From a virus (taxonomy: Duplodnaviria > Heunggongvirae > Uroviricota > Caudoviricetes), in the IMG/VR virus record IMGVR_UViG_2724679293_000004: a stretch of DNA of 18,400 nt. One strand, given 5' to 3'. The position numbers were made by a program. Each line of letters begins with the position of its first letter. Position 1 is the first letter of the stretch. Shown piece by piece: positions 9,001-12,000 of the stretch.

Positions 9001-12000
9001 GATCCGACGCATCTGCTCACGGTCAAAGTTAACCATCTGTGCGGCGATGTTTTTCATAGATCCACCCCGTAAATCCAGTCTGTGTTTGTCAGGTCGAGTT
9101 TTGGTTTGCTGGCTGTCACGGCTGCCTGTTGCTTGTTACGGTTGATTTCGAGCTGGGTCCACTTGTCGCGGAGTTTGGCCGGACTCAGCACGTTACCGGA
9201 CCAGAAGTTGTCCTGGCAGGCCCAGCGGAAAAGCACACACATATCGCGGTGGTTACGTCCGTCACGTTCACGCATCAGGCGGATATCGTTAGCCCACCCT
9301 GCAAAATTCGGTTTTCTGGCTGATGGTGCGATGGTCTTCACCATGTCAAACATCCACTCTGCGGCGGTCAGGTCTTCTGCTGTTCCCCACTTGCTGCCGC
9401 TCTGAATTGCAGCATCCGGTTTAACCACAGAAAGATCGTTTTCTGGCTGGTCAGAGGATTCGCCAGAATTCTCGGACGAATAATCTTTTCTTTTTTCTTT
9501 TGTAATAGTGTCTTTTGTGTCCCCCTGTTTTGAGGGATAGCAATCCCCTAATTTGAGGGATGTTTTATCCCTCGTTTTAGGGGATTTTCCCTCGTTTTGA
9601 GGGATCTCCCTCATTTTAGGGGAACCTCCCTCGTTTTGAGGGATGCACCATTCTGAGATGTTTTTATTTGGTCCAAACATGCCGCCTTGCTGCTTGATAA
9701 TATTCATTCTGACGAGTTCTAACTTGGCTTCATTGCACCGTTTGACAGGTAACTTTGTAATCTCGCTAAGTTGAGAATCGGTGATTCTGTCCATTGGTTT
9801 ATTCCACCCATAGGTTTTACGCAGAATGGCAAGCAGCACTTTAAACTGTCGCTTGGTCAGATCTGCGCCTGAATAGGCCTCAAGCAGCATATTTGATAGT
9901 CTGGCGTAACCATCATCGAGATCTGCCACATTACGCTCCTGTTCGGCAAAGTTACCTCTGCCGAAGTTGAGTATTTTTGCTGTATTTGTCATAATGACTC
10001 CTGTGGATTGATCCAGTAATTCCCTCAGAATTGCATATCAATTTGCTTAGAGTCCCCGGCGGCCACCGGGGATTTTTTCTTTGTGATTTCATCAAGCGCA
10101 TACTTAAAAGCCCTGCTAATCGGACTGATGTCTGATGCCATTCCGAAAGCACACAAGACCGAAGCAATAAATCTCCAGTCCGTTCTGCTTATCTTCGATT
10201 CATGACAGCCAATCATCTTTGCCAGACCGCGCTGGGTAAGCGTTGACAGGTTGATGAGTAAATCTGTTTCTGCGCGATCAATTTCTCGCTGTGTTAGCTT
10301 GCTGTAACTTGCTTGTNTCCCTCATTTTAGGGGAACCTCCCTCGTTTTGAGGGATGCACCATTCTGAGATGTTTTTATTTGGTCCAAACATGCCGCCTTG
10401 CTGCTTGATAATATTCATTCTGACGAGTTCTAACTTGGCTTCATTGCACCGTTTGACAGGTAACTTTGTAATCTCGCTAAGTTGAGAATCGGTGATTCTG
10501 TCCATTGGTTTATTCCACCCATAGGTTTTACGCAGAATGGCAAGCAGCACTTTAAACTGTCGCTTGGTCAGATCTGCGCCTGAATAGGCCTCAAGCAGCA
10601 TATTTGATAGTCTGGCGTAACCATCATCGAGATCTGCCACATTACGCTCCTGTTCGGCAAAGTTACCTCTGCCGAAGTTGAGTATTTTTGCTGTATTTGT
10701 CATAATGACTCCTGTGGATTGATCCAGTAATTCCCTCAGAATTGCATATCAATTTGCTTAGAGTCCCCGGCGGCCACCGGGGATTTTTTCTTTGTGATTT
10801 CATCAAGCGCATACTTAAAAGCCCTGCTAATCGGACTGATGTCTGATGCCATTCCGAAAGCACACAAGACCGAAGCAATAAATCTCCAGTCCGTTCTGCT
10901 TATCTTCGATTCATGACAGCCAATCATCTTTGCCAGACCGCGCTGGGTAAGCGTTGACAGGTTGATGAGTAAATCTGTTTCTGCGCGATCAATTTCTCGC
11001 TGTGTTAGCTTGCTGTAACTTGCTTGTGCCATTTGTTAATTTTCCTATATTGATATATAGCGGCACACCCAGTGGATTTGCCGCTGATGTTTGCTCACCC
11101 GGTTAGAGGTGAAAGGCCAGAACTGTTAAAGAGCAATTTACTTATGCCGCTTGGCGGTAAGCACTTTCTTGATACTTCAGGGCGCCAGCTGTAACGATTT
11201 CCAATCGATAGGCGTCTTTCTCTGGGATAACTTCTTTCCACTGAGAGACTGCTGCATCGCTAATGCCTAGTGCTTTAGCAACAGCACGCTGGGTTCCGAA
11301 GTGGTCAATAACATCTTTTTTGTACATAGACTCGCTCCGAAATTAAAGAACACTTAAATTATCCACCAAAGGAATCTTAAGTCAAGTTTATTTAAGATGT
11401 CTTAACTATGAATACACAACTGATGGGTGAGCGTATTCGCGCTCGCAGAAAAGAACTCAAGATTAGGCAGGCTGCCCTTGGCAAGATGGTTGGCGTGTCT
11501 AATGTTGCTATTTCCCAATGGGAGCGATCTGAAACTGAGCCCAATGGCGAAAACCTATTGGCCTTAGCCAAGGCTTTGCAGTGCTCCCCTGATTACCTGT
11601 TGAAAGGAGAGGATAGTCTTTCAAACATTGCCTATCACAGCAGGCATGATCCAAGAGGTTCGTATCCTCTAATTAGTTGGGTAAGCGCAGGATGTTGGAT
11701 GGAAGCTGTAGAGCCATATCATAGGCGTGCAATAGATAACTGGTACGACACAACGGTAGATTGTTCTGAAGACTCTTTTTGGCTCGACGTTAAAGGTGAT
11801 TCAATGACTGCCCCGGCAGGACTGAGTATTCCTGAAGGGATGATTATTCTCGTCGACCCAGAAGTCGAACCACGTAATGGAAAGCTGGTAGTCGCCAAAC
11901 TTGAAGGAGAAAACGAGGCGACATTCAAAAAGTTAGTTATTGATGCCGGTAGAAAATTCCTGAAACCACTCAATCCACAATACCCAATGATTGAAATCAA

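Follow-up and report, generated by a model that had tools for sequence, protein, structure and literature searches.

A predicted six-iteron lambda-type replication origin in gene O of a lambdoid prophage, beside a 710-nt duplication that probably reflects a scaffold join

Introduction

When six initiator-binding repeats (iterons) can be counted in the replication origin of a lambdoid prophage, where lambda has four, is the origin genuinely larger, or has the assembly inflated the array? The question is raised by the viral record IMGVR_UViG_2724679293_000004 (Caudoviricetes), of which a stretch of 18,400 nucleotides (nt), hereafter the window, was analysed. Its putative origin lies within gene O, encoding the replication initiator, and a perfect duplication of 710 nt begins inside the iteron array. 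We consider it very probable that the window carries a six-iteron origin of the lambda type in the O gene of a lambdoid prophage, and that the 710-nt duplication is the product of a scaffold join and not a biological feature.

Structure of the origin

Iterons were defined by the motif TCCCYYAAAWYN{1,2}RGGGA, and the chance level was set by 200 dinucleotide-preserving shuffles. The window holds eight matches, as opposed to 0.00 expected from the shuffles. Six of them lie at 9520-9643 on the minus strand, inside O, and the other two (10318-10334 and 10338-10354) fall within the duplicated copy discussed below. The array begins at O codon 117, after the part of the gene encoding the N-terminal Phage_rep_O domain, and the next gene downstream is P. 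The iteron sequences are those listed in the oligonucleotide table of PMC7466680, where the one-base variant iteron 3* is the Stx (Shiga toxin phage) type. An AT-rich tract adjoins the array on the side of P (A+T of 70% over 9470-9519); studies of lambda, as summarised in PMC7466680 and PMC3349717, have shown that this tract serves in unwinding. Judged by its sequence, the origin is a six-iteron variant of the lambda type (ori-lambda class), situated inside the initiator gene (Table 1).

Lambda itself (NC_001416) has four annotated iterons (39034-39118) and an O gene of 900 nt encoding 299 amino acids (aa). In a DNA alignment, its origin and that of the window are separated by one 39-nt insertion and two single-base differences, one of them in iteron 3 and the other at about 9474, just outside the AT-rich tract. 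The two origins agree fully in iterons 1, 2 and 4 and in the AT-rich tract and occupy the same place in O; the N- and C-terminal parts of the O protein are ~99% identical, and the P gene and the gene order cII-oop-O-P-ren are shared. A preliminary description of this DNA had reported six O-binding repeats as against four for lambda, and given O a length of 312 aa with an extra segment between the N-terminal DNA-binding domain and the C-terminal part. All of this was borne out: the motif search finds six iterons at the origin, the lambda record annotates four and not six, the open reading frame (ORF) has the length named, and an insert of 13 aa lies behind Phage_rep_O (residues 22-115).

Within the phage collection, the window is matched best overall by phage 434 (OL657226), which aligns with 60% of it at 97.6%, including the nin region, an LpxR-type gene and the recombination genes. 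Phage 434 differs, however, in having four annotated iterons, an O gene of 900 nt and another immunity region.

The 39-nt insertion and the longer O protein

Tandem Repeats Finder describes the insertion as a repeat with a period of 39, 2.0 copies and 89% matches. The two 39-nt units, encoding IPQNEGGSPKMRE and IPQNEGKSPKTRD, are identical at 34 of 39 positions. Aligned with lambda O, the window protein shows 13 extra residues after residue 116; the insert can be written as IPQNEGGSPKMRE (117-129) or, equivalently, as GGSPKMREIPQNE (122-134). As the Phage_rep_O domain ends at residue 115, the insert is placed directly behind the N-terminal DNA-binding domain. Outside these 13 residues, the protein alignment gives 99% identity to the O proteins of both lambda and VT1-Sakai.

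Relative to lambda, one 39-nt unit, i.e. an iteron pair, is present twice, and O has gained, right after its DNA-binding domain, a second copy of the 13-residue segment IPQNEG[GK]SPK[MT]R[DE]. Because the origin lies within coding sequence and 39 is divisible by three, the reading frame is kept and O gains 13 residues. The longer O is a by-product of the expansion of the origin by duplication of an iteron pair.

Several single substitutions in O can be set beside those of its relatives. The window protein carries G17E, as do the Stx phages, and retains leucine at position 37, as in lambda; of the two substitutions of P27 and 933W, G17E and L37I, the former is thus found in the window and the latter is absent. 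These two substitutions describe two phages and probably do not define the origin type. In addition, at position 129 the window has E, as opposed to D in 933W, P27 and Sakai, and at position 291 it has A in place of the G of lambda and Sakai. The source of E129 is base 9606, in the spacer between iterons 1' and 1'', which is G and not C on the O sense strand. Among 67 loci from IMG/VR this base is C in 57, G in 6 and T in 4, and the window therefore carries a minority allele (6 of 67).

Relation to the origins of Stx phages

The novelty implied by the preliminary description could not be upheld, since a six-iteron origin with an O protein longer by 13 aa is already known: it is annotated in GenBank and has been studied biochemically. 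The record of VT1-Sakai (AP000400) marks 'ori iteron 1' to 'ori iteron 6' within an O gene of 939 nt, and its origin differs from that of the window at a single spacer base (9606). The same six annotations are present in 933W (AF125520); both records, we assume, date from about 1999-2000. The Stx phages 933W, P27, VT1-Sakai and H-19B all have six iterons in the order 1, 1', 1'', 2, 3*, 4, as in the window, and share with it the AT-rich tract, the 312-aa O, the 13-aa insert and G17E.

For P27 and 933W, the six iterons and the 13 additional O residues have been characterised by binding, footprinting and mutagenesis (PMC7466680), in a paper that credits the original comparison to Nejman et al. 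2009. Each iteron binds O alone, only four are strongly protected in the whole origin, and a P27-derived plasmid no longer transforms when iteron 1 or 1' is mutated (PMC7466680). According to the published model, the extra iterons raise the local concentration of O or stabilise the O-some, i.e. the complex of O with the origin, and so compensate for the weaker binding of the Stx-type O, and the 13 additional residues are thought to loosen the packing of the complex (PMC7466680). The origins of Stx phages have received such biochemical attention because their replication drives toxin production. The window may represent a 'Stx-type' origin carried by a lambdoid prophage devoid of stx: no stx gene is annotated in the lysis-side stretch of the finished prophage L128 that the window matches, the window itself not having been searched directly for stx. 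Presence in an stx-encoding phage does not define this type of origin.

A mechanism may be proposed on the basis of lambda and of the published, nearly identical origins of P27 and 933W. O dimers would bind the palindromic iterons of 18-19 base pairs through the N-terminal Phage_rep_O domain and assemble into the O-some, the AT-rich tract beside the iterons would then be unwound, and the C-terminal part of O would recruit P bound to the host helicase DnaB.

The 710-nt duplication

Positions 9607-10316 and 10318-11027 are identical over 710 nt without a single mismatch, and one N at 10317 stands between the two copies (the junction reads ...GCTTGCTGTAACTTGCTTGT, one base, TCCCTCATTTTAGGGG). The first bases of copy 1 are those of iteron 1', which is iteron 5 when counted along the plus strand, the iteron at which the preliminary description had the second copy start; neither this N nor the run of N at 1074-1080 was mentioned there.

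We conclude that the duplication is almost certainly a scaffolding artefact. If it is collapsed, by joining 8356-10316 to 11028-12100, the resulting sequence aligns with a prophage of the finished genome of E. coli F2_407_2_2 in one ungapped piece of 3034 nt, which spans P, O, cII, cro and cI and contains four mismatches, all of them at 8965-9121. The collapsed part from 9122 to 12100 is identical to this prophage, including the six iterons and base 9606. A query of 400 nt across the junction splits into two pieces ~710 nt apart in finished E. coli genomes (best 15 of 1722) and in phage records (best 15 of 292). The exact junction pattern was absent from IMG/VR and from the representative genomes of GTDB, a search that a stored literal N might escape, and none of the nearly identical IMG/VR contigs L064, L142 and L143 contains Ns or the duplication.

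A second prophage of F2_407_2_2 shares with the first a ninE-cII repeat of 3.7 kilobases (kb) at 99.8%, and it first diverges at window coordinate 11028, the next base after the repeat, which is where the left contig of an assembler would stop. On the other side, the polymorphism at 9606, the base to the left of copy 1, fits a graph branch that ended the right contig. The scaffolder would have joined two contigs, each ending in the same cII-to-5'-O repeat common to co-resident lambdoid prophages, and the edges of the repeat would coincide with sites at which such prophages differ.

The 7-N gap at 1074-1080 is a second scaffold-join artefact of the same kind as that at 10317. It is immediately bordered on either side by one copy of an exact 101-nt duplication (Table 1), a segment that occurs only once in the finished genome (L128) and only once in the IMG/VR contig L143. 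In finished E. coli relatives the 710-nt segment occurs in 2-5 copies per genome. The IMG/VR draft contigs L009, L012, L014, L015, L041 and L064 end ~30-210 nt from the iterons or at the start of O, and the cII-O-ori segment therefore seems to be a place where assemblies of E. coli genomes with several lambdoid prophages repeatedly break.

The six iterons are not a product of this artefact. The array is real because it lies in a stretch free of N (none at 1081-10316) and because copies of it are present in the finished genome and in L064, an IMG/VR contig that covers window positions 1081-9973 in one piece at 99.93% and includes all six iterons. The warning of the preliminary description that misassembly had to be excluded was thus well placed for the duplication, which is very probably an artefact, but not for the six-iteron array. 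For a scaffold with two N gaps, each flanked by falsely duplicated sequence, the practical value of these results is one of annotation hygiene: neither the O' ORF nor the partial second cII nor the second oop unit merits annotation as a gene, and the count of six iterons should not be dismissed as an artefact.

Alternative explanations

It might be asked whether the scaffold as a whole is chimeric, its left block (to 10316) deriving from one prophage and its right block (from 10318) from another in the same genome, with the shared repeat as the point of joining. We think this unlikely, even though the presence of 2-5 copies of the 710-nt segment per finished relative, and the 3.7 kb shared at this place by two prophages of F2_407_2_2, would provide the opportunity. 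The finished prophage L128 is matched by the right block (10318-18400) in one piece at 99.975% but by the left block only beyond about 7790 and at 97.5%, and coverage of the window by any one finished genome does not exceed 82%, all of which speaks for a chimera. However, the collapsed sequence 9122-12100 is identical to one finished prophage, and the metagenomic contig L141 contains window-like nin and immunity segments together. Lambdoid phages are mosaic, so that a different nin region beside the same O-P-immunity block is normal. The scaffolder, moreover, presumably had read-pair support for the join. Chimerism would in any case be compatible with a six-iteron origin beside a scaffold join, as the origin would still be real.

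A genuine tandem duplication of 711 nt would have given the prophage an extra segment, cII'-oop-O', in which two iterons would be accompanied by a 141-aa fragment of O that retains the N-terminal DNA-binding domain. Such a structure would combine a partial origin able to titrate O with a truncated O, and could interfere with replication; the segment would not be functionally inert, as a plasmid fragment with oop and iterons inhibits the replication of lambda (PMC3349717). The copies are in tandem and perfectly identical, as would be expected of a very recent event. Yet the N stands exactly at the junction, the junction is contiguous in none of the best 15 of 1722 E. coli and best 15 of 292 phage records and has no exact match in IMG/VR or the GTDB representatives, and the collapsed sequence matches a finished prophage. 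In addition, the 1074-1080 gap has a like signature of flanking duplication, and both edges of the repeat fall at sites that differ among related prophages. A real duplication is accordingly highly improbable.

That the six-iteron array is itself an artefact, i.e. a four-iteron origin inflated by collapse or expansion of repeats, may be practically discounted in spite of the contig boundary inside the array (9606/9607), as the array is within an N-free stretch, is 100% identical to finished F2_407_2_2 and covered by the independent contig L064, agrees with the annotated origins of 933W and VT1-Sakai and with experimentally cloned origins (PMC7466680), and leaves the reading frame of O intact across the insertion.

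Some points do weigh against the interpretation of the locus as a six-iteron origin beside a scaffold join. The origin activity and O binding attributed to the exact window sequence are carried over from nearly identical origins, and the window O departs from the studied P27 and 933W proteins at a few residues (L37, E129, A291). The left edge of the repeat is matched to a polymorphism at 9606 between co-resident prophages of the source genome only by inference. The verdict of artefact is circumstantial, although several independent lines agree on it, and the 82% ceiling on finished-genome coverage makes the end-to-end arrangement of the scaffold provisional.

Frequency of the forms and an allele with eight iterons

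In IMG/VR, exact matches to a marker of the six-iteron form were found in 67 contigs and to that of the lambda four-iteron form in 58. Counting iteron arrays by regular expression over the IMG/VR loci gave four iterons in 59, six in 56 and eight in 1, and among loci with an intact O ORF the protein has 299 aa in 41 and 312 aa in 42. The six- and four-iteron forms are thus about equally common in IMG/VR loci.

The single array of eight iterons is located in the IMG/VR contig L024 (10126-10288). Its sequence of 264 nt is present in one piece, at 100% identity, in the finished genome of E. coli 03_3013, in an intact O gene (Table 1) whose 325-aa product contains the 13-residue unit three times. 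The two extra 39-nt units are identical to each other, and the expansion is therefore probably recent. At an identity of at least 99%, the eight-iteron query was recovered from about 6 of 5426 finished genomes and from no phage record. By a rough estimate, coverage of this query reaches 80% or more in ~1240 of the 5426 finished E. coli genomes, a threshold below which four-iteron origins should drop. A full-text literature search for 'eight iterons' with 'lambdoid' returned no papers. The eight-iteron allele, which is not part of the window, extends known biology only slightly.

These data suggest that the number of iteron pairs varies in steps of 39 nt. A broader proposal, which is possible and in our opinion rather doubtful, is that the unit of 39 nt (13 codons) is an in-frame cassette of variable copy number, one, two or three copies giving four, six or eight iterons and O proteins of 299, 312 or 325 aa, that it is still expanding in natural E. 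coli prophages, and that its copy number tunes the assembly of the O-some and the dependence on host factors. The window would then carry the middle allele.

Contig L024 shows a further feature near its origin: at 10324-10352, TGAACCGCCCCGGGAATCCTGGAGACTAA follows immediately on the ...GAAAAG of the AT-rich tract and closes the contig. We take this sequence to resemble a terminal repeat of an IS3-family (IS629-like) insertion sequence (IS). If so, an IS has disrupted the L024 origin, or has made the contig end there.

Genetic context

According to the ORF scan and Pfam searches, the window represents the early region of a lambdoid prophage, whose rightward operon is encoded by the minus strand. 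The coordinates of the features are collected in Table 1.

Table 1. Features of the window (18,400 nt), with the eight-iteron O gene of E. coli 03_3013 for comparison
Feature	Coordinates	Strand	Basis and remarks
Iteron 1 (ATCCCTCAAAACGAGGGA)	9627-9643	-	Motif; equals iteron 1/1'' of PMC7466680; annotated iteron 1 in VT1-Sakai and 933W
Iteron 1' (TTCCCCTAAAATGAGGGA)	9607-9623	-	Motif; equals P27/933W iteron 1' (PMC7466680); absent from lambda
Iteron 1''	9588-9604	-	Motif, PMC7466680; same sequence as iteron 1
Iteron 2	9568-9584	-	Motif and alignment; identical to lambda ITN2
Iteron 3* (AAATTAGGGGA; lambda AAATTGGGGGA)	9544-9560	-	Motif and alignment
Iteron 4, 18-nt form	9520-9537	-	Motif and alignment; identical to lambda ITN4
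AT-rich tract, putative unwinding site	9479-9519	-	Identical to lambda across the tract; adjoins iteron 4 on the P-proximal side
39-nt in-frame insertion relative to lambda (two iterons, 13 codons)	9606-9644	-	DNA alignment gap
Gene O, replication initiator, 312 aa, origin inside	9054-9992	-	ORF; Pfam Phage_rep_O, E=6e-36, residues 22-115
Duplication copy 1, right end of left block	9607-10316		Contains 5' half of O (iterons 1, 1'), oop region and cII from codon 3 on
Single N	10317		Read as scaffold gap between two contigs
Duplication copy 2, left end of right block	10318-11027
Truncated O' ORF, 141 aa, almost certainly spurious and made by the join	10278-10703	-	O residues 1-128, X, out-of-context residues
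Second oop-like unit, almost certainly artefactual	10678-10794
Second N run, 7 N	1074-1080		Flanks 973-1073 and 1081-1181 identical; exact 101-nt duplication
Gene P, helicase loader, partner of O	8356-9057	-	Pfam Phage_lambda_P, E=1e-61
96-aa ORF at the ren position of related annotated prophages	8069-8359	-	ORF scan
oop-like antisense RNA unit between O and cII	9967-10083	+	Promoter/terminator scan and alignment
cII, intact copy	10736-11032	-	Pfam Phage_CII, E=3e-32
cro	11142-11327	-	ORF; Pfam P22_Cro
cI-like repressor	11408-12058	+	ORF; Pfam HTH and Peptidase_S24
Eight-iteron O gene, 978 nt, 325 aa, intact	L132 1218-2195; NZ_CP074958.1 3903704-3904681		E. coli 03_3013 prophage

The oop-like unit between O and cII combines a pO-like promoter (9967-9995) with a strong terminator (hairpin and T-run, 10049-10076), and can be aligned both with the oop annotated in phage 434 and with the equivalent region of lambda. 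As Rfam gave no match to the oop region, the assignment is based on the alignment with 434 and lambda and on the promoter/terminator scan.

Two other features lie further from the origin. The Rfam element Lambda_thermo (the cIII thermoregulator element) is matched over its full length at 14200-14258 on the plus strand (88.5 bits, E=9e-21). An ORF of 960 nt (3568-4527, plus strand) runs opposite to its neighbours; in both length and relative position it agrees with a gene for an LpxR-type lipid A deacylase that is annotated in phage 434 and the PEC240 prophage, and it is likely a moron gene.

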